64,000 nucleotides of DNA from assembly GCA_037142615.1 (NCBI GenBank), contig JBAXAI010000001.1:352001-416000 (forward strand), in the 5' to 3' direction. Shown here in pieces: positions 47,201 through 60,350 of the stretch (within the stretch, counting starts at the first letter, position 1; each line of letters opens with the position of its first letter). The stretch comes from Spirochaetales bacterium. Lineage in GTDB: Bacteria; Spirochaetota; Spirochaetia; JABEVK01. The notes beneath the pieces were generated by a model. It ran no database searches and was not told the origin of the DNA. It saw only the letters and a program-made list of their open reading frames with translations. The position numbers and the translations under genes were made by a program.

Positions 47201-49783
47201 TCAGGAAAACGCGGTTTCGCGCAATTGAGCCAGAAAAGTCAGCGCCTGAAGCGGCGTCAAGTTGTCGGGATCGAGCTCTCGAAGGCGGTCGCGGACCGCA
47301 TCGGGTTGAGGTTCGGCAGCAAACAGGTCCAGCTGGACGCGTCGAGCGGTTTGGGAGCCCGGTAGTCCTTGTTCGGGTGGCAAGGACTCCAGGATGGCCG
47401 TCGCCCGATCGACAACACTGCCGGGAACACCAGCCAAGCGGGCCACGTGCAAACCATAGGAGTTGTCTGAGGCCCCGGCGACGACCTTTCGGAGGAAGAC
47501 GACTTCGCGACCATCGTCCTCTACCGCCATGGAGAAATTGGAAAGAGCCGGATGACGCAACGCCGTGAGTTCGTGGAAGTGAGTGGCGAAAAGAGTCTTG
47601 GCACGGACGGTCTCAAGCAGGTATTCACAGATGGCCCAAGCGAGCGAAAAACCATCGCGTGTGCCTGTTCCGCGCCCAACCTCGTCCATGATGACCAGAC
47701 TCCTGGCCGTGGCTTGGCGCAGGATTCGAGCCGTCTCCTGCATCTCGACCAGAAAGGTGGACTCCCCTTTCGCCAGATGATCGCTGGCACCGACCCGACA
47801 GAAAATCCGGTCTACCAGGCCTACCTCGGCTCGGGAACAAGGCACGAAAGACCCGGTCTGCGCCAGAAGCACAATCAGAGCCGTTTGGCGCAGGTAGGTG
47901 GACTTCCCTGCCATATTCGGACCCGTGATGAGGAACAGGCTGTCAGAAGGATGAAAATGGACGGAGTTGGGTACGAAGGCCGCAGGAAGCGAAGCTTCGA
48001 CGACCGGGTGGCGGGCATCCTCCAAGAGCAGTTCCGAACCCGACTCGACCAGAGGCCGCACCCAGCTTCCATTCTGGGCGACCTGAGCCAGCGACGCCAA
48101 CACGTCGACTTGAGCCACCAGCGCGGCTACGGCGCCGAGTGCCGGCAACTGCAACTTCAGACCATTGCGCAGGTCGAGAAACAGGGCTTTTTCGAGCGTG
48201 AAGATCCTTTCCTCGGCGTGTTGCAGGCGGTCCTCCAGCTCCCGAAGGCGAGTTGTGGAGTAGCGTTCTGTGCCCAAGAGGCTTTGACGGCGCTGAAAAT
48301 GAGCCGGCGGGTTGTCCAGCTTTGCTTTGGAGATCTCAAAGAAGTACCCGATGATCCGGTTGTGTTTGAGCTTTAACTGAGGCAAACCCGCGACGGTTTG
48401 TTCCTCGGCAAGGTACGACTCCAGGACTTGCTGGCTGTTGTCGCGCAAGTTTCGCAGCTCGTCGAGTTCTGCCGAGACTCCAGACTGAATGAGCCCGCCC
48501 TCTCCGAGTTGCGGCGCAGGGTCCGCCAAGAGCGTCCTGGCAAGGCTGCCTGCCTCACGCTCGAGAGCTTCCCGATCCGAGGTCGTCAAGTCGTTCAGAA
48601 ACAGAAGGCCCTCCGGGTGCTGCTCCAGTACCGCGGCGAGCTCAAGCGCACGCCTCAGGCTTGTACCAAGCCCGACCAGATCGCGCGGTGAGGCTTTGTC
48701 CAGAGCCAACCTTGCCGCCAAGCGTTCGAGATCGAGGATACCGGAAAGAAGCTTCCGGAGTCGAACCAACAAGGTGGAATCACGGACCAGCGACTCGATC
48801 CTGTCCTGACGCCAAAGGATGGGCCCCGTCTCGACGAGCGGGAACTTTAGCCAGGACTGCAAAGTTCTCGATCCCGCCGCCGTGCATGTCCTGTCGAGAA
48901 CTTCAAACAGGGTGAAGGCCTTGCTACCGTCGCGGGCATTGGCAGTGATTTCAAGGCTGCGGGCGGAGTCGGCATCCAACTGCAATGAATCCGACGGACG
49001 GAAGACGGTGAGGTGGCGGAGGTGCCCCAAAGACCTGCCAGGGTTACCTCGACGCCAGTAGTCAAGAAGTGCTCCAGCGGGGACAGCCTCGGGCGACTCC
49101 TCGTGCAGCGAAAAGGCCTGCAGGCTGGCAACGCCGAAATGTTCCAGCAGCCTTCGGTAGCCATTTTGTCCTTCCACACGCCAAGGTTCGAGGGTCGTGA
49201 CCACCGTTTGCGGAAACCCAACCAGCAAGGCGGCAAAAGACGGCTCGTCGCGAACCAACTCGGCACTGACCAGGAGCTCGCGCGGCAGGAACCGTTGGAG
49301 CTCCCTCGCCAAGGCATCCTTCCACCCAACGGTGGAAAAAGCCGTTGCCTGAAACTCCCCGGTCGACAGGTCCGCCACGGCCACAGCACCTTGACTGGGG
49401 CCAACGTGCACAGCCAGAGTATAATTGCTTGCCGAAGTGCCAAGGTAATTGTCTTCGACGAGCGAGCCGGGTGTCAGAATGTCAACAACTTCCCGGCGGA
49501 CAATCCCTTTGCCCTCGCCCGGCGTGGAAACCTGCTCACAGATGGCAATGGAACGCCCGGCTTCCAGCAACCGTCGAATATACGAGGCCGCCGAATGGTA
49601 AGGAATTCCACACATCGGCTCATCCTGGCGGTGGGTCAGAGTGAGGTTGAGAAGTGCACTGGCCTCACGGGCGTCGTCGCGGAACATCTCATAGAAGTCC
49701 CCCAAACGAAAGAACAGAATCTTGTCGAGGTGCTTGTCCTTGATCTCTAGATACTGCCGCATCATGGGGGTGATTTCAGCCAT
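47201..49783 (-). CDS. mutS: DNA mismatch repair protein MutS
   Basis: TPMMRQY, FFRLGDFYE, TGPNMAGKSTY, STFLVEM, DEVGRGT and ATHFHEL; C-terminal clamp motif QLDLF. Confidence 0.99.
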   Translation of the reverse strand: MAEITPMMRQYLEIKDKHLDKILFFRLGDFYEMFRDDAREASALLNLTLTHRQDEPMCGIPYHSAASYIRRLLEAGRSIAICEQVSTPGEGKGIVRREVVDILTPGSLVEDNYLGTSASNYTLAVHVGPSQGAVAVADLSTGEFQATAFSTVGWKDALARELQRFLPRELLVSAELVRDEPSFAALLVGFPQTVVTTLEPWRVEGQNGYRRLLEHFGVASLQAFSLHEESPEAVPAGALLDYWRRGNPGRSLGHLRHLTVFRPSDSLQLDADSARSLEITANARDGSKAFTLFEVLDRTCTAAGSRTLQSWLKFPLVETGPILWRQDRIESLVRDSTLLVRLRKLLSGILDLERLAARLALDKASPRDLVGLGTSLRRALELAAVLEQHPEGLLFLNDLTTSDREALEREAGSLARTLLADPAPQLGEGGLIQSGVSAELDELRNLRDNSQQVLESYLAEEQTVAGLPQLKLKHNRIIGYFFEISKAKLDNPPAHFQRRQSLLGTERYSTTRLRELEDRLQHAEERIFTLEKALFLDLRNGLKLQLPALGAVAALVAQVDVLASLAQVAQNGSWVRPLVESGSELLLEDARHPVVEASLPAAFVPNSVHFHPSDSLFLITGPNMAGKSTYLRQTALIVLLAQTGSFVPCSRAEVGLVDRIFCRVGASDHLAKGESTFLVEMQETARILRQATARSLVIMDEVGRGTGTRDGFSLAWAICEYLLETVRAKTLFATHFHELTALRHPALSNFSMAVEDDGREVVFLRKVVAGASDNSYGLHVARLAGVPGSVVDRATAILESLPPEQGLPGSQTARRVQLDLFAAEPQPDAVRDRLRELDPDNLTPLQALTFLAQLRETAFS

Positions 49784-49846
49784 GACCCATCCTAGCTGGG
49801 AACCCTTCCCAGGGGAAGCCAGCACGAAAAAATCCGGCCCGAAAAC

Positions 49847-49874
49847 TTGTCAGGACCGGGCTTTGGAGTATACT
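49847..49874 (+). promoter_or_regulatory. sigma70-type promoter, probably yielding leaderless mRNA
   Basis: TTGTCA-N16-TATACT, 6 nt before GTG 49881. Confidence 0.6.
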
Positions 49875-49880
49875 GAAGTT

Positions 49881-50372
49881 GTGGCAGAATCGCTTCAGTT
49901 TCAAGAAACCCCCGCTGGTTTGTTTGTTCGGGCCGAGGGGCACATTACCGCCGCCATTTCGGCGGACCTCCGGGAGCTTGTGCTGGACCGACTCTCAAGA
50001 CCCCCGGTTCCCCTGCAGGTGGCTGTCGATCTTCAACTCTGCGACTACATGGATTCGACGTTCATGGGTCTTCTTGTGGGCTTTCACAAGCGTTTCAAGG
50101 TTTTGACGGGGCGACCGTTGACGATCCTGAGGCCCTCTCAGGAGTGCGTAAAACTTCTGACCGGTCTGGGAATCCTGAAGTTGATGCACCTGGTCGTGGG
50201 CGATGAACCGCCCTCACCCCTGACATGGCAAACCGTCCATCACGCCCAAAAAGCCTCACCTGAGATCATTCTGAGAGCCCATCAGAACCTGAGCGAGCTT
50301 TCTGACGAAAACGCCCAGAAGTTTCATACCCTCGAAAGCATCCTCGAACAGCAGGTCCCCAAAAAACCGTGA
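49881..50372 (+). CDS. STAS-domain protein (anti-sigma factor antagonist-like)
   Basis: VDL..C.YMDSTFMG.L motif, L..LG and a C-terminal IL.AH.NL.E...N..KF extension. Confidence 0.88.
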   Translation: MAESLQFQETPAGLFVRAEGHITAAISADLRELVLDRLSRPPVPLQVAVDLQLCDYMDSTFMGLLVGFHKRFKVLTGRPLTILRPSQECVKLLTGLGILKLMHLVVGDEPPSPLTWQTVHHAQKASPEIILRAHQNLSELSDENAQKFHTLESILEQQVPKKP

Positions 50373-50384
50373 TCCGAGAGCTCC

Positions 50385-50906
50385 TCAGCGGCTGAAGTCG
50401 GCCGTGAGCCGGGCAATCACGTCATCGGTAATGTCGGTGTCGGGGCCGTACCACACGATCGAAGTGTCCTTCAGGTTGAGCACGAGCCCGAAACCCTTGG
50501 AAAGCGCTGCCTGCTCGATCTCGCTCGTCAGGAGCTTCTGGAACGACCCATCCGCCTTGAGTTCCTCATTCTTCTGATTCAGGACCAATTGCTGGACACG
50601 GGCGTATTCTTTCATGGCGTCGGTGCGCTTAAGGATGTCGGCATCCAAGGTTTGAACCCGCGCGGCATCGCTCTTGGCTTTGGCGTCGTTGCGCTGGTCG
50701 TTCACCAACCGGATATCTTCCTTCATCTTGTCGATTTCTTTCTGGATGCCGGCCTTAAGCTCGTCGAAATCGCGGACGGGTTTCGTTTCCTTGTAAAACT
50801 GGGTGTAAACCCGGGTGATATCGACGACTCCGGTCTTGAAGAACTGTTGCGCTGGCAGACCAGAGGCGACCAGCACCAAGGCAGCCACCCAGAAATATCG
50901 TTTCAT
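50385..50906 (-). CDS. skp: OmpH/Skp family periplasmic chaperone
   Basis: Signal peptide, KTGVVD, coiled-coil body and DITDDVI C-terminal motif; follows bamA. Confidence 0.9.
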   Translation of the reverse strand: MKRYFWVAALVLVASGLPAQQFFKTGVVDITRVYTQFYKETKPVRDFDELKAGIQKEIDKMKEDIRLVNDQRNDAKAKSDAARVQTLDADILKRTDAMKEYARVQQLVLNQKNEELKADGSFQKLLTSEIEQAALSKGFGLVLNLKDTSIVWYGPDTDITDDVIARLTADFSR

Positions 50907-50918
50907 GAACGTGATCTC

Positions 50919-53531
50919 CTAGTATTCCATACCGAAGGCCACCACCAGCTTCATGTCGAGCACATCGCCGAATAGACCGTCGCCTTTGCTCCACGTGACG
51001 CCACCGGCGTCGATCTGGAAAGGCTTGGTGACAAAGAGCGACAGCGGGAACTGGGGACTGACGATCCGCGCTCCGGTCCCCAGAGAGAACTGGTGCGAGG
51101 AAAGTGGCACGTCTGTGACAGAAGTATAGGAACTGCTCACGTTCAAAAGCAAGGCATCGTCGATGAAAGTGTCCCACCACGCAAAGCTTCCCAAGTAGGG
51201 AATCGGTGTGCGGAACTCGGCACCGCTGACGAACGACAGCTTACCAGCGTTCTGGTACCCCCAGCCCCGGCCCGACATCATGCCGTCAATGTAGAGTTCG
51301 TCGGCAGGCTGCACGGCAAGGACCCCAGTGCCCCCTACCGGCCCCAGGAGGTTGCTCATGGCTACACGGGCCTTGAACACCCCGTCGAAATCCCAACCGT
51401 CAGCGACCGGTAGGCTGAACGCTTTGAAAAACCCATCCAGACGGGAATCGAAGCGCGTGTAGTGGGTCGAACCGCCCAGAAATCCGCCCGAGAGCGTGAC
51501 GGTTTCCGAGGCCAGAAAGCCGCTGGTCGGGTTGTACACGATGTCGCGGGTGTCCCAGGTGCCCTTGGTCCAGATCTGGTTCGACCACAGCCACTGACCA
51601 AGATTCTCGCGGAGCGACTTGTTCGCAGGCCGGTAGGCGTTCGCGTCGTAGTAAATCGACTGGAGTGTCGTTTTTTCGCCCGTGCCTACGCTGAAGCGTC
51701 CCACAGGAGTGAACAACGAGTACCCCGTGTTGACTCCCAGGTTGAACTGCAGCGAATCGTACTGCATTTGGGCACCCTTTTTGAGGGTACCGTTGGCTTG
51801 ATCGTACAGATACTGGGTCTCGAGGCCGTAGGTCGCAATGTCAGAGTCACTCGGGACCCCAGGGAAGATCTGACCAGCCGCGTAGGCAACATTGTTGTAG
51901 GTCTTATCGGCGCTGAACACGTACGTCGTCTTGTCGTAGGGGTCGGGAATATCGCCGGTGGTATACACGGGCCCCAGAATGTCCTGGTCGACCTTGGAAT
52001 TGATGGTGTGGCTGAAGCCAAACTGACCGCCGAGGGTGATGCGCTGACCCAGCAGCCAGTTCTCGTTGTACGACAGGTTGAGATTCTGGCTCACCGGTGA
52101 AATCGTGGAATCGACGCCGATGGTCTGACCGGTGCCCATGAAGTTCTTATCCGACCACTTCACGTTGGCAGATACCGGAAAGTCAGAACTGCCGGAGAAG
52201 GTCAGGCCAAACGCGATATCGGCCGTTTTGCCCTCCTCCACGTTGAGGATCAGGTCCATGAGGCCATCGGCCGAACCCTGGGGGGTTTCGGGGCTGATAG
52301 TCGAAAAATACTGCAGGTTGTAAAGGTTACGGATCCCCGTGATGATCTTGGACTTGCTGAACACGTCGCCGACTTCGACGGGCAGCTCGCGCAGCACCAC
52401 GTTGTCATGGGTCTTCGTGTTCCCCCGCACCAGAATGTTCTCGATGTGGGCCCGGGGACGCTCGACGATGGTCACCTCGTAGCGGAGGGTGTTTCCTTCG
52501 CGTATCTCCTTGCGGGAAACCGAGTTGAAGATGTAACCGCTTTCGAGATAGATATCGATGACACGCTGGTAGTCGGCCTCGAGCCGTTCTTTGTTGAGCG
52601 TCTTGCCCGACGACTGCCGCAGCAGCGCGTTGAGTTCGCTGGTTGAGAAAATCTTGTTGCCCACATAGGTGAAACCACCGTAGTTCCACGGGCTCCCCTC
52701 GTTGACAGTAAGGACGATGGTGAGGACATTCCTTTCGGAAGCCGTGTCGAAGGTGATGGTTTTTTGCGTGTCGACGACGCGGGCATCGATGTAGCCGCGG
52801 TTCCAGTAGTAGTTTTCGATGCTACGGAGGTCCTTAACGAACGACGCTTCCTTGAACAGTCCCTGGTCGAAGAAAGACTGCGCTTTGGTGTCCATAACCG
52901 ACAACAACGCCGAGTCCGACGCGAATGAAAGTCCCTTGAACTCTATGGCCTTAACCGCAGTTTGAAGCCCCTCGTCGACCTGGAAGACGACCTTGGACCG
53001 GGTGTCACTCAGGTCCTGAATGCTGGAGTTGACCTTGGCGGCGAGAAAGCCCTTGTCCCGGTAGAGATTCAGAACCGCCGCTTCGTCGGTGGCCACCTTG
53101 TCGGTGTTGATCATGTCGCCTTTTTTGATTGTCACGACGGCTTGGAGGTCCGCAGAACGAAGCTTCGAGTTGCCCACGAACTCAATTTCGTCGACAAGAG
53201 CCTTTTCCTGGACTTTGAAGGACAAAACCACCGCAGACCCGGCTTCGTTTCCTTTGAGTGCCGTGGGCACGATAAGACCCTGAAAAAAGTCGAGGCCATA
53301 TAGCGCATTCTGGAGCTCCTGAAACAGCTCGTCGGAAAACGGCTTGCCGAGGAAAGGCTTGAGGACACCGTCAATCTCGGACCGCGCGACGGTTACCAGT
53401 CCTTCGAACCGGATGTCGGTGATGGGCTTACCCAAGTACCAGGCGTCGGTCGAGGCAGCTGGGGTCTGGCCCCCAACGGGAACCAGCACAGCCAGCAGGG
53501 TGGCCAGCAACAGAAAGCGGTGAAACTTCAT
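50919..53531 (-). CDS. bamA: Outer membrane protein assembly factor BamA
   Basis: Signal peptide, five POTRA-like repeats (IEF.GN, Y...G[FY]..A.V, GNTKT.D.V.LRE), NF.G.GQ barrel start and terminal aromatic residue; SD AAGGAG. Confidence 0.96.
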   Translation of the reverse strand: MKFHRFLLLATLLAVLVPVGGQTPAASTDAWYLGKPITDIRFEGLVTVARSEIDGVLKPFLGKPFSDELFQELQNALYGLDFFQGLIVPTALKGNEAGSAVVLSFKVQEKALVDEIEFVGNSKLRSADLQAVVTIKKGDMINTDKVATDEAAVLNLYRDKGFLAAKVNSSIQDLSDTRSKVVFQVDEGLQTAVKAIEFKGLSFASDSALLSVMDTKAQSFFDQGLFKEASFVKDLRSIENYYWNRGYIDARVVDTQKTITFDTASERNVLTIVLTVNEGSPWNYGGFTYVGNKIFSTSELNALLRQSSGKTLNKERLEADYQRVIDIYLESGYIFNSVSRKEIREGNTLRYEVTIVERPRAHIENILVRGNTKTHDNVVLRELPVEVGDVFSKSKIITGIRNLYNLQYFSTISPETPQGSADGLMDLILNVEEGKTADIAFGLTFSGSSDFPVSANVKWSDKNFMGTGQTIGVDSTISPVSQNLNLSYNENWLLGQRITLGGQFGFSHTINSKVDQDILGPVYTTGDIPDPYDKTTYVFSADKTYNNVAYAAGQIFPGVPSDSDIATYGLETQYLYDQANGTLKKGAQMQYDSLQFNLGVNTGYSLFTPVGRFSVGTGEKTTLQSIYYDANAYRPANKSLRENLGQWLWSNQIWTKGTWDTRDIVYNPTSGFLASETVTLSGGFLGGSTHYTRFDSRLDGFFKAFSLPVADGWDFDGVFKARVAMSNLLGPVGGTGVLAVQPADELYIDGMMSGRGWGYQNAGKLSFVSGAEFRTPIPYLGSFAWWDTFIDDALLLNVSSSYTSVTDVPLSSHQFSLGTGARIVSPQFPLSLFVTKPFQIDAGGVTWSKGDGLFGDVLDMKLVVAFGMEY

Positions 53532-53548
53532 TCGGTCTCCTTCGATCA

Positions 53549-56500
53549 TCAATAACTCCAAACCCACTTGAACGTTACGGTATTGTCGGAAACAAAGAGG
53601 GTTTCCGGGTGCTGGGGCTGCATGGTCCAGTTCAAGCCGAAGAACGGCGTCTGGAAGTCCATGGAGATCTCAGGCTCCACCAGCAACGGGGTGGTCTGCT
53701 GTTGGGAAACAACGGTGTTCTGCCGGAACGCGACGCTCCCTTGGAGGAACAGATCGTCGCCCAGATACTTTCCGAAAAACACCCGTGTGTTGTCAAGATA
53801 ATCGGATGCACCCAGCGGGGCATTTCCGCCCAAAAGCGACTTTTTCAGGATCTCAGTCTTTACCGAGAAGAGGTCCAGGCTGAAGTTCTTCTTCACAGAC
53901 TCCTCAAAAGGCTTGAGGAGGAAGCTCGTTCCAACGTCGGAGGCCAGGGAAAGGGCCGTCTTGAGTCCTGTTGTTTGGGCGTAGTCGGTGGGCAGCGACA
54001 AGGTGTTGCCGACCAATTGCTGAAGTTCCTCGGGAGTGCGGTAGGGGTCGGAAGTAAACCGGGGGCTGAACTTGGAAAGCGGGCTGTCGCCGCGAAGGGT
54101 GATGGTCATCGGTCCGGTGTCCGTACGGGTCTTGAGCTCGGCGCGCACCACCAGTCGCGGATCGATGCCGTTTTCGTCATCGTTGAAAGTCACCGAACCC
54201 TCCCTGAGCGTAAAGGTCTGGTTCAGGTAATTGAGCTCACCTGTCTTAAGGTCGAGCTTGCCGATCAGCGCGAAATCGTTGACCGCTTCGTTCCAGTGGA
54301 TGAACAGCGACTGGTTGGTCGCCATGACAGCCCGCAGCACAGGAAACTGCTGGCTGGGAAAAACAAACTCAACGTTTCGGCCGGAAACCACTGTCAGATC
54401 GGAATTGATGCCAAAGTAGTCGCCACCCGAGGGGATGTAGCTGCCCTGCGCCATCGAAACGACCGAATCGTGAGCTGTCATCTTGCCGCCCAGAATGAGC
54501 GAGGTTGGATTGCCTTTGACCGTCAGCAACCCCGTCGCTATTCCGTCGGCCCGGATCCCCATGCCCAAGTAGCTGTAGGGCAGCGACGAGGCTACGTCGG
54601 TCTCGAGCGAAAGCTGGTATTCCTGGGGAAGCAGGTGGTCGAGCGCGGCGAGCCCGGAGAGGGTCCAGATCTGGCCGCTGGGGCCGATGTTGCTTGGAAC
54701 AATCTTGAGACTGCGCCCAAGGAACTCAAGGTTCACCGTCACCGGACCAATGGTCTGTCGGATATAGGGGGTGTCGAACACCAATTCTGCGACGCTGCCC
54801 TTCCCGGTAATCTCGGGGTCGGTCAGGAGCCCGGCGACGACAAACGAACCCGAGAGAATACCGGCTTTGAGGTTGAGCAACCGCTTGTCGGGCAGTTCGC
54901 GCAAAAGCGCGAGGTCCAGACGGGCGTCCTCAATCTGGAGTTGCACCTTGCCACCGGCCAACCGACCCGAAGCGTGGCCCTGCAAGGGGAACGGCAGCTT
55001 CGCCTGAGCCACCAACCGGCCGTCCAGGTCGCCTTCCGCCGACGCCGAGCCATCGTCGAGCGCCAGCTTCCACAGGCCTTCGTCCAGCGAGGCGGACAAA
55101 CTCCAGTCCGGCATCTTGTTGCCTGAGAGTGCCACTTGGGTCGCCTTCAGACCGGTGGAAAGTGACGGGGAAAGGGTTCCCGCGTTCCAGGTTCCCCGAT
55201 TGACAACTTGGGCCGACCAGCGGTTGGTCCCGAACCGGAGCGTGGTAGGCAAGGTGGCGGCCCAGGCCCGGATTCCCAGATCGAGGTCGAGCGTGCCGTC
55301 GGCAATGGCCAGCGGGTCCAGCGCGACCTGAAGCTGGTAGAGGTGCGCCTTCGTGAGCGAACCTTCGGCGTTGAACTTGAGTCCCAGAGGGCTGTCACCC
55401 CAGTGGGCCTCGGAAACGGTAGCCGCGACGGTCCAGGTAGAATCTGCACCCTTCAGCTCAAGGTTGCCCTTGGCTGCAACCCGTCCACGGAATGGAGCCG
55501 AAATCCAGCGGCCCAGGTCGAGGCGTGTTGTCGTGAACGTCACCTGGCCTACTTCCCACGAACTGAGATTCCAACCGACATCGATCGCCTCGGTTCCATC
55601 CAGTCCCTGCAAGGAAAGGCTGCCAACCCACGGGGTGCCGAAGTCGAGATTCCAGTTGCCCGAAACCGTGCCCTGAAGACGGTTGTGCGAGTCCCGGAGT
55701 GAAACCGACGTGAAGGTCGCCGCGTCGCCCTGGATCACTCCCTGGGTCTGCAGGAAGAAAGGCTCGGCGTTCCAAGGGTAAACCCCTTCGAGGTCTGCCT
55801 TGTCAAACTGTAGGGCAAGTCCCGAACTGCGACGCTGCGCCGTCACGTGGAACCCCGTCTTGAAACCACCGGGGACGAGCAGCTCATCCAGCTTGAGTTC
55901 ACCGTCCCAGTCAGCGAGTGTCACGTCACCGTCCTGAGGGACGAACCAACCTGCCAAACCGTGAGAACCGCTGAAGGAAAGGCGGTGGCCCTCGACGTCG
56001 TAGAGTCCTGTCACATCAAAGCGCTGGCCCCAAACCCCAGCCTGTAGTTGCCACGACAGCAAGGAGGAAGACTGAAGGTCCGCCTGCAAGTCTGCCGTGA
56101 AGTCCAGTCCGTCCCAATGAAAAATCCCGTTCTTGAGGCGCAGCAGGCTATTTTGGAAGTCGGCCGAAAACTGCCCGGTACGCTCGGGTGTCGCCGGATC
56201 GGCAAAGCTCACATCAAGGCCCAGCAGCGACCAGGACCCGGGTCCGAAGGACGCCGAGCCCTTTCCCTGCACGACGAAAGCAGCCAGGTCGGCCGGAAGG
56301 TTGACGGTCTGATGGATTCCCTCGGCCAGCTGCGCGGCAAACGACAACGGAAGATCAGTAACCTGAAAGCTGACCGGAAACACTTGGTCGACGAGACTTC
56401 CTTTGCCGCCCAGAACGATGCGGGTCGCAAGGCCTTGGCTGTCGTGAAACGCCTCTGCCGAGCCCGCTACCAGGTCGCCGTCGCGTTCAAACCACCCGGT

Positions 56501-57787
56501 GACGGTCCGGAAGTCCAGGTTCTGCCAGCGAAGCTCGTCGCTGGTGAAGTTGACCGTGTTGCCCGATCTGGTGAGTTCGGCCGAACCGGAAACCGTCCCA
56601 AAACTTTGGTCAGTCCAGTGGTCAAGCACCAGATGTCCGTCGGGAAGCCAGGAATCGGTGCTGAGAGTTCCGTCAAACGACGCACCCAGAACCGGCGACT
56701 CGAACGAGGTCTCCTGGAAGGTCACCACCCCGGGAACCGCATTCACCTTTCCCCGGACAACCGAGGATTCGAGGAGCAGTCCGGTGCTGTCGAGACCCGA
56801 AGGAAGGCCTGCCTCACCGTTGGCCTGAAAAGCCCATGCCTTCAGGTCGTTCGAAAGCTGCAGCGAAAACTGCCCGGTCAGCGTTGTCGCCAACAGTTTC
56901 GAGACCACTTCAGACTGCTTCCAGACGATGAGTTGACTGGGCTGAAAATGGTCGGCCGTAACGCCGATCGAGGTCTCCTGGGTCTGTGTATCGTAGCGAA
57001 TGCGGAAGTCGAACGGCAGGCTGTCCTGCACCTTTACAAGCTCGACTTCGCTCGGGTTGATGCGAAGTTGAACGTGAAGTGGAGCCAGGTCGAGAAGGTT
57101 GCTGGTGACCCGGGAGGTTCTTGCCTGGATGGAAAGCACGTTGAACTGGGGGTTGGTCTTGAGGTCGCCGTCAAATTGGCCTTGCACCTGTTTGAGGAGG
57201 TTCCCCTTCGTGGGAAACGCGGCTTGAACCTCACCCCGGAACATCAGGCGGTAGTCCGAGCCTTCGCGGGTAAACTGAAAAAAGCCCCGCTCAAGGCCCA
57301 ATGTTTCTGTAGGGCTGTTCCAGGCCAGCGAGACATTGAAGCCTTCGATAGGAGGAATTGAGCCTTGCTGGGCCGGCGCTGCGAGATAGGCTCTGACCCG
57401 ATCCAGAAGTTCGCCATCGAGTCTGGGGTCCAGCTCGACAGAGCCGTTGATAATCTGAACCCGCTGAACCAGGTCATCGAGTTTTCCGGTCAGGAAGGCG
57501 GTCCAGTTCCAGCGCAGGCGTACTGATGCCGCCTTGACCACGGTGTGCCCTTGAGGCGTCGACACTTCCACCCCAAGGAACTCGAACGCTTCCAGAATGT
57601 TGGGCGAAAGCGATTGATAGTGGAAGGTCAGGCCGACCTGACGTTCCAGTTGCTGGACAAAAGAGTCTTTTTGCGTGGTCATGAAACCGTCAAGTTGCGA
57701 CCAGATGCGGGGAGTCAGGCTCAAGACGCCGACGGCGAAGATTCCCGCAACGACCAGCACCAGGACTCTCAGCGGAGAAGTCTTCAT
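53549..57787 (-). CDS. tamB: Translocation/assembly module TamB (AsmA-like) protein
   Basis: N-terminal TM anchor, about 1400 aa of beta-taco-like sequence, C-terminal DUF490-like region (F.L.EG...F, DP.L...AE, F.SDP, FGKYLG.DLF); directly upstream of bamA. Confidence 0.88.
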   Translation of the reverse strand: MKTSPLRVLVLVVAGIFAVGVLSLTPRIWSQLDGFMTTQKDSFVQQLERQVGLTFHYQSLSPNILEAFEFLGVEVSTPQGHTVVKAASVRLRWNWTAFLTGKLDDLVQRVQIINGSVELDPRLDGELLDRVRAYLAAPAQQGSIPPIEGFNVSLAWNSPTETLGLERGFFQFTREGSDYRLMFRGEVQAAFPTKGNLLKQVQGQFDGDLKTNPQFNVLSIQARTSRVTSNLLDLAPLHVQLRINPSEVELVKVQDSLPFDFRIRYDTQTQETSIGVTADHFQPSQLIVWKQSEVVSKLLATTLTGQFSLQLSNDLKAWAFQANGEAGLPSGLDSTGLLLESSVVRGKVNAVPGVVTFQETSFESPVLGASFDGTLSTDSWLPDGHLVLDHWTDQSFGTVSGSAELTRSGNTVNFTSDELRWQNLDFRTVTGWFERDGDLVAGSAEAFHDSQGLATRIVLGGKGSLVDQVFPVSFQVTDLPLSFAAQLAEGIHQTVNLPADLAAFVVQGKGSASFGPGSWSLLGLDVSFADPATPERTGQFSADFQNSLLRLKNGIFHWDGLDFTADLQADLQSSSLLSWQLQAGVWGQRFDVTGLYDVEGHRLSFSGSHGLAGWFVPQDGDVTLADWDGELKLDELLVPGGFKTGFHVTAQRRSSGLALQFDKADLEGVYPWNAEPFFLQTQGVIQGDAATFTSVSLRDSHNRLQGTVSGNWNLDFGTPWVGSLSLQGLDGTEAIDVGWNLSSWEVGQVTFTTTRLDLGRWISAPFRGRVAAKGNLELKGADSTWTVAATVSEAHWGDSPLGLKFNAEGSLTKAHLYQLQVALDPLAIADGTLDLDLGIRAWAATLPTTLRFGTNRWSAQVVNRGTWNAGTLSPSLSTGLKATQVALSGNKMPDWSLSASLDEGLWKLALDDGSASAEGDLDGRLVAQAKLPFPLQGHASGRLAGGKVQLQIEDARLDLALLRELPDKRLLNLKAGILSGSFVVAGLLTDPEITGKGSVAELVFDTPYIRQTIGPVTVNLEFLGRSLKIVPSNIGPSGQIWTLSGLAALDHLLPQEYQLSLETDVASSLPYSYLGMGIRADGIATGLLTVKGNPTSLILGGKMTAHDSVVSMAQGSYIPSGGDYFGINSDLTVVSGRNVEFVFPSQQFPVLRAVMATNQSLFIHWNEAVNDFALIGKLDLKTGELNYLNQTFTLREGSVTFNDDENGIDPRLVVRAELKTRTDTGPMTITLRGDSPLSKFSPRFTSDPYRTPEELQQLVGNTLSLPTDYAQTTGLKTALSLASDVGTSFLLKPFEESVKKNFSLDLFSVKTEILKKSLLGGNAPLGASDYLDNTRVFFGKYLGDDLFLQGSVAFRQNTVVSQQQTTPLLVEPEISMDFQTPFFGLNWTMQPQHPETLFVSDNTVTFKWVWSY

Positions 57788-58422
57788 TCCGGACGTCCCA
57801 CTTCCAGGATCAGCGTCCACCGGAGCGTGTAGGGCTGGGCAGAAGTCGAGGCCGGAAAAGTCGCATCGCGCAACCAGGTCCGCAACCAGAGGTCCAACTC
57901 GGGATTGCCTTCGCCGAGCCCCTCAATTGACGTGGCGAAACCGCCCTCGGCAGGCACCGAAAACACAAGGTTCCAACGTGCTCCTTGGGGAGGGACCAAA
58001 GACGGCGGAGGAAGCGGAGGAAGTTCGTGTCCTTCCGTCCGTGAACCCGAGCCCCAACCTGGTTTGGGAAGCTCCGGCGGTTCCGCCGTGGCGGTGACCA
58101 GGCCGGCCAAGAGCTCGTCGAGGCTTGCAGAAGAGGAGGTGAAAGCCAATAACTCGGGTGTTTGGCCCGGCAAATCCGTCGGTTGCCAAGCCCCCGTGAC
58201 GTTGACAGTCGCAGCGCTAACAGGAGGAGAGTATGGCAGCTTCCGCCCGGAACTCCCCGAGGCCGACGCGGGGCCGGAAACCGCCGACGCTGCCGTGAGA
58301 TGCATTTGGATGCGTTCCGGAGGTGCGGGAAGCAGGTTCTCGAGCCCCCAGGCGAACAAGGCCACCACCACGAGGTGCCCGGCGGCTGATACCAACCACG
58401 GACCTTTCGCGTGAAGGGTCAC
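57784..58422 (-). CDS. TonB/TolA-like energy transducer
   Basis: N-terminal TM with S-x3-H (VSAAGHL), Pro/Ser-rich linker, and a TonB_C-like end (F.V...GG...G.PELD......ATF). Confidence 0.7.
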   Translation of the reverse strand: MTLHAKGPWLVSAAGHLVVVALFAWGLENLLPAPPERIQMHLTAASAVSGPASASGSSGRKLPYSPPVSAATVNVTGAWQPTDLPGQTPELLAFTSSSASLDELLAGLVTATAEPPELPKPGWGSGSRTEGHELPPLPPPSLVPPQGARWNLVFSVPAEGGFATSIEGLGEGNPELDLWLRTWLRDATFPASTSAQPYTLRWTLILEVGRPE

Positions 58423-58848
58423 TCACCGGCTCCCGCGCGTCTGGGTCAACAGAGAAATGTCGGTGACCCCTTGGGCTCTGAGGGCGTCCATGACGGCGAT
58501 CAGCAGGGCGTAGGGAATTTCTTCGTCACCCTGCACCACTGCGGACGACCGGGCCGAGCCCAGGGTCGTCAATATCTGCCGGAGAACGGCCGAGAAACCT
58601 TCCAGGGTCACGGTCCGCCCTTGAAGGACCAGCGTGGAATCGCGGGTGATCGAGACGGTCAAGGTGTCGGTTGTCACCAGTTGGCCAGTCTGCGCGTCGG
58701 GAAGTTTGACGTCGATGGCCCCTTGAATCTGAAAACTGACGCTCAACACGAAGCAGATCAGCACCAGAAGCACGTCGATCAGTGGAGTTAGGAGCAGAGA
58801 CGGTGGTTCGCTGGACGTGCGGCGGAGCCGATAGGCCGGCTCAACCAC
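58423..58848 (-). CDS. exbD: ExbD/TolR family biopolymer transport protein
   Basis: LTPLIDVLLVL (conserved TM Asp), V.LP.A and V.GD...PY.....VMD.L...G; probable GTG start overlapping the exbB stop. Confidence 0.92.
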   Translation of the reverse strand: MVEPAYRLRRTSSEPPSLLLTPLIDVLLVLICFVLSVSFQIQGAIDVKLPDAQTGQLVTTDTLTVSITRDSTLVLQGRTVTLEGFSAVLRQILTTLGSARSSAVVQGDEEIPYALLIAVMDALRAQGVTDISLLTQTRGSR

Positions 58849-59449
58849 CTTGGGGCTCTCCGGTCGCCGACAGTTGCCCGGGAGCGGGGGAAGGTCCCAA
58901 CGCGGCAAGCACTGACTCAAGCTGGGACGTCAGGCCCAGCAGGTACTTCTGGAAGACCGCGTGCGCGCCGAGGCTGGGAATCGCGGTGACCAACCCGAGC
59001 GCGGTAGCGACCAACGCCTGAGCGATTCCCCCGGCCAAGGCTGACGGATCGGCCCCTCCCCCGGCCCGCAGGGCCAGGAACGAGACGATCATTCCGCACA
59101 CTGTGCCAAAGAGCCCGGCCAACGTCGCGAGATTGGCGAGGGCCGGGAAGTAGGCCAGCCGTTCCTCCAGCGGTGCCAGTAGATTCTGGGCCCGCATTTG
59201 CCGTAGGGCCGCCGACTCGTGGGCGTAGGCCAAAAGCTGAGCTACCGGGTGCGAAGGACCGGCTAGCGCGATGGCGCCGCGGAAATCGCCCGCGAGCGCA
59301 TGGTCGACAACTTCGGAAGCCGCCGGCCCGGCCAACGGTCGGGCCCCCTTCCAGTCCCCGAGTTTGGACAAAATCAACCCGACTGCGTACACCGAGAGCG
59401 CCAAGAGAGGAAGGACAAAGATCCCCATCTGCTGCAGAAAACCAATCAT
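58841..59449 (-). CDS. exbB: MotA/TolQ/ExbB proton channel family protein
   Basis: LA.LAGLFGTVCGMI.SF and LAGGIAQALVATALGL.TAIPS. Confidence 0.93.
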   Translation of the reverse strand: MIGFLQQMGIFVLPLLALSVYAVGLILSKLGDWKGARPLAGPAASEVVDHALAGDFRGAIALAGPSHPVAQLLAYAHESAALRQMRAQNLLAPLEERLAYFPALANLATLAGLFGTVCGMIVSFLALRAGGGADPSALAGGIAQALVATALGLVTAIPSLGAHAVFQKYLLGLTSQLESVLAALGPSPAPGQLSATGEPQGG

Positions 59450-59706
59450 GCGAGCAACTCCTCGAGGGTAACCGGGACAGGGTCTCGGCTTTCATTACCC
59501 GACTCGGAGGGGAACGTGACCGACTGCCAGATCGCCGCTGGGGGCTTTAATAGCGGTGGGGGTGAAGGAATTGCTGGGGGGCTGGAGGGTGCCTTCAGAA
59601 AATCCGTGTCGAAAGCCCGGATCTCGGTGACACCAAAGGTTTGTGACCCGATGACGAAAGGCAAAAAGAGCCCTAGAATGACCGCCAATATCCGTGTGAA
59701 ACGCAC
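59446..59706 (-). CDS. Small hypothetical exported/membrane Pro-rich protein
   Basis: 86 aa: basic N-terminus, hydrophobic segment, Pro-rich linker. ATGA overlap with exbB; extended -10 just upstream of the GTG. Confidence 0.6.
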   Translation of the reverse strand: MRFTRILAVILGLFLPFVIGSQTFGVTEIRAFDTDFLKAPSSPPAIPSPPPLLKPPAAIWQSVTFPSESGNESRDPVPVTLEELLA

Positions 59707-59712
59707 AAAGAG

Positions 59713-59721
59713 AGTATACCA
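59713..59721 (-). promoter_or_regulatory. Extended -10 promoter of small ORF-exbB-exbD-tonB-tamB-bamA-skp operon
   Basis: Minus strand TGgTATACT, 6 nt upstream of GTG 59706. Confidence 0.6.
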
Positions 59722-59726
59722 GAATT

Positions 59727-60350
59727 ATGCACACTGACAAAAGGGAAGTTCTGCACGGCTTTTTCGTTCTCGAGGGCATCGATGGGGCTGGAACGACCAC
59801 TCAACTTCGCCGCCTTGAGGCCCGTGCCGTCGAGACCGGCCTTTCGCTGCGTGCCGATTGCGAACCTACACCCTATCCGGCTGGCGTGCTGATCCGGCAA
59901 ATCCTCCGCCGCGAGGTTACCGCGCACCCCGGGACGATCGCACGCCTGTTTGCCGCCGACCGCCAGCAGCACCTGGAAGGTTTGGGAGGGATCCGCGAGG
60001 CCGTTTCGGGCGGGATCAAGGTCCTGTCTGACCGCTACTTTTTCAGCAGTCTTGCCTATCAGAGCCTGGAGTGCGGCTGGGAAGCCGTGGCCGAGCTGAA
60101 CGCCGGTTTTCCGCTCCCGGAAGCCCTTTTCTTTCTGGACATCGAAGTCATGACCGCCCAACACCGAATCAACAGCCGGGGCCAGGCCCGCGAGATCTAC
60201 GAAGACGCACTTGTGCAGGAAAAAGTCCGGCAAGGCTATCACCGCGCCATCGATGAAGCTCAGGCTCAGGGGCTCGAAGTGCACCGTCTCGATGCAAGGC
60301 TGGGTGTCGAAGAGTTGACAGACTCCATTTGGGCCAGAATCTGCCGATAA
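59727..60350 (+). CDS. tmk: Thymidylate kinase
   Basis: LEGIDGAGTTTQ, EPT, LFAADR..H and SDRY..SSLAYQ. Confidence 0.96.
   Translation: MHTDKREVLHGFFVLEGIDGAGTTTQLRRLEARAVETGLSLRADCEPTPYPAGVLIRQILRREVTAHPGTIARLFAADRQQHLEGLGGIREAVSGGIKVLSDRYFFSSLAYQSLECGWEAVAELNAGFPLPEALFFLDIEVMTAQHRINSRGQAREIYEDALVQEKVRQGYHRAIDEAQAQGLEVHRLDARLGVEELTDSIWARICR

Follow-up and report, generated by a model that had tools for sequence, protein, structure and literature searches.

A Ton-type motor in one operon with tamB, bamA and skp in a spirochete genome without detected TonB-dependent receptors

To our knowledge, no energy source has been established for outer-membrane biogenesis through the BAM and TAM machines and AsmA-like lipid bridges. 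In Escherichia coli, the exchange of phospholipids between the two membranes was reported to depend on the proton motive force, with a mechanism lacking, according to the accessible part of PMC10345924. The closest described motors are the Ton system of E. coli (complex 9ddo) and Tol-Pal, the latter presented in excerpts of PMC11889096 as a receptor-independent, 5:2-type proton motor for outer-membrane stability and lipid homeostasis. The closest described assembly machine is the hybrid BAM-TamB system of Borrelia and Treponema (BB0794/BB0795; TP0325/TP0326), in which, in the available portions of PMC5582053, PMC11361582 and PMC8407342, tamB lies directly upstream of a single bamA and skp follows; the first two of these also report that TamB binds BamA in Borrelia. 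Here we analyzed a 64,000-nucleotide stretch of DNA from a Spirochaetales bacterium (contig JBAXAI010000001.1, positions 352,001 to 416,000; hereafter the window), in which exbB, exbD and a tonB-like gene are encoded in one operon with tamB, bamA and skp. We propose, at about an even chance of being right, that these genes encode a receptor-independent Ton-type proton motor that works for the outer-membrane machine formed by TamB and BamA.

The motor genes resemble the E. coli Ton system in the transmembrane (TM) aspartate of ExbD, the S-x3-H motif in the TM helix of the TonB-like protein (hereafter the arm), its proline-rich linker and the beta-beta-alpha-beta order of its C-terminal domain (C-domain). 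Unlike the Ton system, they reside in a genome in which no TonB-dependent transporter was detected, they are joined in an operon with tamB-bamA-skp, and the C-domain of the arm is too diverged to match the Pfam family TonB_C by itself. Tol-Pal is approached in the channel subunits, which score marginally better on the TolQ and TolR models. In contrast to Tol-Pal, however, no TolB_N domain was found and no pal stands beside the motor, the arm matches TonB, and the operon partners are TamB, BamA and Skp. With the hybrid BAM-TamB system, the locus shares, at the level of the genes alone, a DUF490-type TamB directly upstream of the sole Omp85 protein, a five-POTRA BamA, and then Skp. It differs from the Borrelia and Treponema systems by the motor, since the available descriptions of those systems name none, and the accessible text of a T. 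pallidum outer-membrane survey, which mentions TamB-BamA, contains 0 occurrences of TonB, ExbB and TolQ (PMC8407342).

In Veillonella, tolC precedes tamB-bamA-skp. Ton- and Tol-type motors are also found in other settings. The Agl-Glt gliding machinery has TonB-like arms. In the accessible part of a 2025 survey of periplasmic force transducers, vWA-type transducers adjoin tolQR-like genes (PMC12204202). As far as these sources go, the gliding machinery and the vWA transducers are like the present locus in that Ton/Tol-type motors were recruited beyond nutrient import and are recognized by gene neighbourhood, whereas the arms and partners differ here. The available main text of the survey contains no TamB, BamA, AsmA, Omp85 or spirochete name (PMC12204202). 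Full-text literature searches, judged by titles and abstracts, returned no description of a linkage between a Ton motor and tamB-bamA, and the link, conserved as detailed below, is apparently undescribed.

The seven genes form one operon (Table 1). They occupy 50385-59706 of the minus strand in the same direction, and each overlaps its neighbour, abuts it or lies 12-17 bp from it, as read from the open reading frames (ORFs) and base by base at the junctions. The small ORF and exbB share an ATGA overlap (59446-59449), exbD, from its GTG at 58848, has an 8-nt overlap with the end of exbB (an alternative TTG start at 58920 overlaps exbB as well), the TGA of exbD abuts the GTG of the tonB-like gene (58420-58425), and the latter overlaps tamB through a second ATGA (57784-57787). 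A gap of 17 nt, containing GGAG, follows tamB, and one of 12 nt follows bamA. The initial annotation, made from the letters alone, had described this co-oriented run from the small ORF to skp, with its first five genes overlapping or abutting and gaps of 17 and 12 bp thereafter, and the direct reading bore out both statements. Its placement of tmk was corrected, as this gene lies on the plus strand and is divergent from the run. The gene order was confirmed by independent metagenome contigs, including a single contig from run X3 (57674-59227) that covers the 5' end of tamB, tonB, exbD and exbB, and the DNA of the window recurs in freshwater and lake metagenomes from several studies.

Table 1. 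Coordinates of the operon genes and flanking features in the window
Feature	Position	Strand	Description
Promoter-like hexamers TTGTCA-16 nt-TATACT, with TG	59713..59740	-	10/12 matches; ends 6 nt before the small ORF GTG
Small secreted ORF, 86 aa, GTG start	59446..59706	-	Signal peptide, strand-like motif and Pro-rich tail
exbB/tolQ-type proton channel subunit, 202 aa	58841..59449	-	PF01618, E 1.1e-22
exbD/tolR-type subunit, 141 aa from GTG 58848	58423..58848	-	PF02472, E 7.7e-23; TM Asp in LTPLID
Divergent TonB-family arm, 212 aa	57784..58422	-	TM helix with S-x3-H, Pro-rich linker, beta-beta-alpha-beta C-domain of ~80 aa
tamB, 1412 aa	53549..57787	-	N-terminal TM anchor; C-terminal DUF490/TamB domain, PF04357, E 5e-15
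bamA, 870 aa	50919..53531	-	TIGR03303, 447.9 bits (cut-off 297); five POTRA domains and Omp85 barrel
skp/ompH periplasmic chaperone, 173 aa, last of run	50385..50906	-	PF03938 (OmpH), E 6e-16
tmk	59727-60350	+	Divergent; 20 nt from small ORF

The profile matches, the predicted fold and the conservation of the TM His and Asp lead us to call the ExbB-ExbD-arm motor complete and to assign the arm to the TonB family, of which, judging from sequence profiles and predicted structures, it is a fast-evolving member. The ExbB alignment has 24 invariant columns across 12 orthologues, and the TM Asp of ExbD is invariant in 16 of 16. For the arm, we aligned 16 positional orthologues, namely that of the window and those of 15 related loci. 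The TM His is invariant (16/16) and S-x3-H is present in 14, reading S-A-A-G-H in the window; the Pro-rich spacer is very variable in length, and the C-domain comprises about 80 residues. The motor residues had been called intact initially, with reference to the LTPLID Asp and this TM motif, and their conservation in the orthologues agrees with that statement. TonB_C was matched by 6 of the 16 arms (best E 1.7e-11), and by all five arms from other classes and from L029, a locus of a Spirochaetaceae metagenome-assembled genome (E 6.5e-7 to 0.047, with one of the five passing the curated cut-off). The profile of the 16 arms matched full-length E. coli TonB (9ddo_F) with an E value of 1.3e-10, spanning the TM helix and the C-domain, compared with 0.28-0.31 for TolA C-domains.

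The predicted structure points in the same direction. In the AlphaFold2 model of the window arm, the C-domain has a predicted local distance difference test (pLDDT) score of 80-90 and the beta-beta-alpha-beta order. Foldseek with this model returned TonB C-domains as the top seven hits, but with weak E values of 0.3-0.9. In a second structural aligner, the 14 best rows were all TonB-type C-domains (Z 4.5-6.2, over 75-89 aligned residues), and TolA C-domains ranked below them (Z 3.8-4.5), the TonB and TolA folds being related. The initial label of the arm as TonB/TolA-like holds for the TonB family at the level of the profile and the predicted fold; the window protein by itself matches no family model.

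The linkage is not unique to this genome. We scored a genome as linked where ExbD and TamB shared a strand and ExbD lay 4-9 kb upstream of the C-domain of TamB, which held for 16 of 121 genomes of the same class (the window genome included), belonging to 8 families; TamB was detected in 108 of these genomes and ExbD in 82. Two genomes with an ExbD and no TamB match (G076, G119) were not counted as linked. Outside this class, 135 genomes of the phylum were surveyed and at least 10, from 6 further families, were linked, a lower bound with 212 ExbD matches outside those considered. The linkage therefore extends to at least 14 families of the phylum, a recurrence far above chance adjacency, though related genomes are not independent. 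All 15 same-class loci that were fetched show the order exbB-exbD-tonB-tamB; in one of them, and in L029, two unrelated genes stand between exbB and exbD. The loci of the other classes take two forms: in family f48 the order is barrel-like protein-exbB-exbD-tonB-tamB-bamA, and in three loci from families f58 and f73 it is exbD-tonB-tamB-bamA-skp-lpxD-fabZ, with Pfam E values of 1.9e-6 (just under the cut-off) for lpxD and 5.4e-34 for fabZ.

In three loci, tamB and bamA are apart: a nucleoside phosphorylase gene, recJ and an M23 peptidase gene are inserted between them in G013 and G100, and bamA is on another contig in G180. In all three, exbD-tonB is still directly 5' of tamB. Under the reading that we favour, the motor would be functionally tied to TamB, and through TamB to BamA. 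We also scanned loci with the ExbB alignment: among the 80 matches listed, mostly from other phyla, one (L029) had tamB/bamA, in a sample that was not chosen for other phyla and in which tamB/bamA were sought within 10 kb by tblastn, for which TamB is too diverged.

Some of the linked loci have unusual contents. The genes between exbB and exbD in L029 (L029:10634-13146) and in the same-class locus (L023:497-2984) encode two paralogous membrane proteins of 405-437 aa, and the same paralogous genes lie further upstream of the cluster in L114 and L115. One family (L027/G048, L028/G074) has a giant TamB of 2072-2695 aa and an arm of 529-541 aa, and its ExbB frame of 645-817 aa suggests fused or extended forms. 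In L117, from a 1.7 Mb genome (G130), exbD is directly 5' of tamB with no TonB-like ORF between them, and tamB is broken into frames of 708 and 620 aa, which flank a 79-aa frame.

These results bear on the possibility that a decaying TonB and a remnant motor are left here by historical accident, without present function, which we find barely credible. The failure of the window arm to match any family model would fit such decay. However, no frame is interrupted, stop codons overlap the starts that follow, the Asp, the His and the predicted C-domain fold are retained, and the arrangement is conserved across the phylum; an exbB contig in an RNA library (described below) weakly adds to this.

Does the motor serve receptors? 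The initial annotation had seen no TonB-dependent receptor, tolB or pal in the window, and profile searches of the whole genome bore this out. The assembly (4.27 Mb, 76 contigs, 96.7% complete) gave 0 matches for the receptor barrel (PF00593), 0 for the Plug domain (PF07715), 0 for canonical TonB_C and 0 for TolB_N, the search for TolB covering its N-domain only. The case of receptors being present with this as their only TonB thus does not arise here, as neither a barrel nor a Plug was detected. Seven OmpA-like peptidoglycan-binding domains were found, all of them on contigs other than those of either motor. TamB (PF04357) and Omp85 (PF01103) each have a single match in the genome, the latter being the bamA of the operon. 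The three matches to the MotA/ExbB family are a flagellar stator candidate, the tamB operon and a locus on contig 29, where a second exbB-exbD pair and a 336-aa TonB-like gene (L004:6527-8582, minus strand) lie beside a nucleoside:H+ symporter gene and supplement the motor picture given initially. The genome also has three matches to the flagellar sheath protein FlaA, a family matched in 0 of 14 control genomes, which marks it as that of a spirochete.

An ordinary nutrient Ton system, serving divergent or plug-less transporters missed by the models and standing beside tamB without functional meaning, is in our estimation distinctly improbable. In its favour, the components are those of a Ton system, divergent barrels can escape family searches, the genome is not 100% complete, and barrels of TonB-dependent transporters are present in 47 of the 121 class genomes. 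Nevertheless, 12 of the 16 linked genomes, like the one studied here, have no such barrel, and in six of those 12 (G006, G009, G013, G100, G048 and G074) the tamB-linked ExbD is the sole ExbD. The other four linked genomes have a receptor, and each carries a further ExbD, which adjoins the receptor in three of the four. In addition, the tamB linkage is kept across the 14 or more families, and linked and receptor-adjacent ExbDs fall into separate groups, as follows.

The ExbD phylogeny, inferred by maximum likelihood, comprised 46 sequences, namely 26 tamB-linked copies, 12 receptor-adjacent copies and 8 'second' copies from genomes with little or no receptor-barrel match (none in all but one). 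The 16 same-class linked copies fell together (support 82/75, with one long-branch intruder), the receptor-adjacent copies formed two other groups, and seven of the eight second copies formed one clade (support 97/96), to which the contig 29 ExbD of the window genome belongs. The labels required 5 changes on the tree, compared with 17.9 in shuffles, a contrast that is inflated by relatedness and read over a weakly supported backbone. In terms of sequence, the 'second' motors of the contig 29 type are a third motor lineage in spirochetes.

Under the reading that we prefer, a receptor-independent Ton-type motor at the service of TamB-BamA, ExbB-ExbD would use the flow of protons to exert force on the TonB-like arm. 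Spanning the periplasm, the arm would act on the TamB-BamA machine or on an outer-membrane partner that cooperates with this machine, and this action would gate or drive the delivery of phospholipid and/or protein to the outer membrane, rather than nutrient import. The interpretation offered by the initial annotation, that the motor acts on TamB or BamA and not on nutrient transporters, is partly supported: of the outcomes named there as refuting it, neither a linkage unique to this genome nor receptors with this as their only TonB was found. A narrower proposal, that the arm links TamB, as a bridge, or the TamB-BamA complex directly to the proton motive force, so that in these spirochetes a 5:2 motor drives or gates the bulk delivery of phospholipid and/or protein, seems to us unlikely.

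Several observations weigh against the motor serving TamB-BamA. Any contact of the arm with TamB, BamA or Skp is putative, the 212-aa arm of the window by itself has no Pfam or NCBIfam match, and the genome carries a second TonB-like motor. The secreted protein encoded upstream of exbB could be an alternative partner of the arm, one not considered in the initial annotation. None of the contigs from metatranscriptome run X20, described below, bridges a gene junction by 31 nt on both sides. The related genomes in the survey are not independent counts, and 92 of the 108 TamB-bearing class genomes are without the linkage. TamB occurs without any ExbD in at least 26 class genomes, so that TamB-BamA does not in general require the motor; in family f27, four relatives with small genomes (1.0-1.5 Mb) encode TamB but lack ExbD. 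Finally, the gene order may be conserved because envelope genes are regulated together, and the classical bamA-skp-lpxD-fabZ cluster likewise mixes functions.

The conserved operon provides a genetic system for asking whether a proton motor acts on TamB-BamA, in cells without detected receptors or lipid A, and such an action would widen the known uses of Ton/Tol-type motors. Direct coupling, if true, would represent the first dedicated energy transducer for an AsmA-like or BAM-TAM machine and would give a mechanistic lead for the old report of proton-motive-force-dependent lipid exchange. If the link is mere co-regulation, the finding would still define a third, receptor-independent motor lineage in spirochetes.

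The main alternative, serious although clearly short of an even chance, is a Tol-like, receptor-independent envelope system for tethering, division or lipid homeostasis, which would stand beside tamB-bamA merely through co-regulation. Its arm would pull the upstream secreted protein or an OmpA-like lipoprotein; the upstream partner would be a protein that in other lineages is beta-rich and resembles outer-membrane proteins (OMPs), and that is reduced to 86 aa here. The NCBIfam scores lean slightly toward this alternative, since ExbB scores 58 bits on the TolQ model and 45 on the ExbB model, its best matches, and ExbD scores 64 bits on the TolR model and 46 on the ExbD model. However, the ExbB scores are both far under the cut-offs, and the TolQ and TolR scores fall far short of those for the equivalogs (221 bits for TolQ, TIGR02796; 127 bits for TolR, TIGR02801). 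The seven OmpA-like domains would supply candidate partners, yet neither motor has an adjoining OmpA-like gene. The absence of a TolB_N match from the genome and the far better match of the arm profile to TonB than to TolA also argue against a Tol-like system.

The upstream secreted protein is the other element on which a Tol-like system would draw. In the small ORF of the window, the signal peptide is followed by the motif FG-x-TE-[ILMV]-x-[VAL]-[FY]-D-x-DFL-x-AP and then by the Pro-rich tail. The ORF has no Pfam or NCBIfam match and is conserved in four other members of the genus, with weaker conservation in a sister genus. In several other families, a secreted protein of 340-610 aa directly precedes or overlaps exbB; these forms often end in an aromatic residue and carry a similar short, strand-like motif after the signal peptide, which may resemble a TonB box, and they have no Pfam match. 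The motif is invariant among 11 sequences of a 476-aa form, for which AlphaFold2 predicted nearly all beta-strand (mean pLDDT 41) and which has a weak likeness to clusters of beta-barrel OMPs (0.90-0.92). On the other hand, the upstream proteins gave no convincing alignment across families, so that homology between them is not demonstrable, and a homologue search with a 339-aa form returned only itself. Moreover, the three f58/f73 loci have an unrelated gene directly upstream of exbD, yet exbD-tonB-tamB persists there. Complex prediction for residues 112-212 of the arm (its C-domain) and residues 21-86 of the small ORF (its mature form) gave 'no answer', with a score of 0.00, which speaks neither for nor against binding.

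A C-terminal stretch of the small ORF, W-Q...LEELLA (59446-59530), resembles one in the arm linker, W-Q...LDELLAG (58090-58180). This likeness was picked up weakly in relatives by tblastn (E ~0.03) and may reflect a partial duplication.

LpxC was detected in none of the 121 genomes sampled from the class, which leaves no contrast for a correlation between the motor and lipid A; for the same reason, the outer membrane here is without lipid A. In the three f58/f73 loci, which belong to other classes, lpxD-fabZ directly follow skp. Given both observations, the motor is linked to tamB both in lineages that carry lipid A genes and in lineages that lack them.

The signals for transcription are modest. 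The promoter-like site upstream of the run lies inside the start region of the divergent tmk, and the region holds no clear excess of such sites (3 compared with 1.7 expected). It is too near the start codon of the small ORF for a leader with a ribosome-binding site and represents either a leaderless transcript or a chance match. A terminator scan did not rise above chance, with 14 sites compared with 12.8 expected. Five contigs of 169-215 nt from metatranscriptome run X20 fell on skp, bamA and exbB, for which DNA carry-over is possible, and run X23 gave no contig matching the operon; the X20 contigs hint weakly at expression and do not prove a single transcript. Downstream, the gene 3' of skp is convergent with the run: it encodes a STAS-domain, anti-sigma-antagonist-like protein (49722-50372, plus strand) and overlaps the start of a long minus-strand frame (47201-49825) that resembles mutS.

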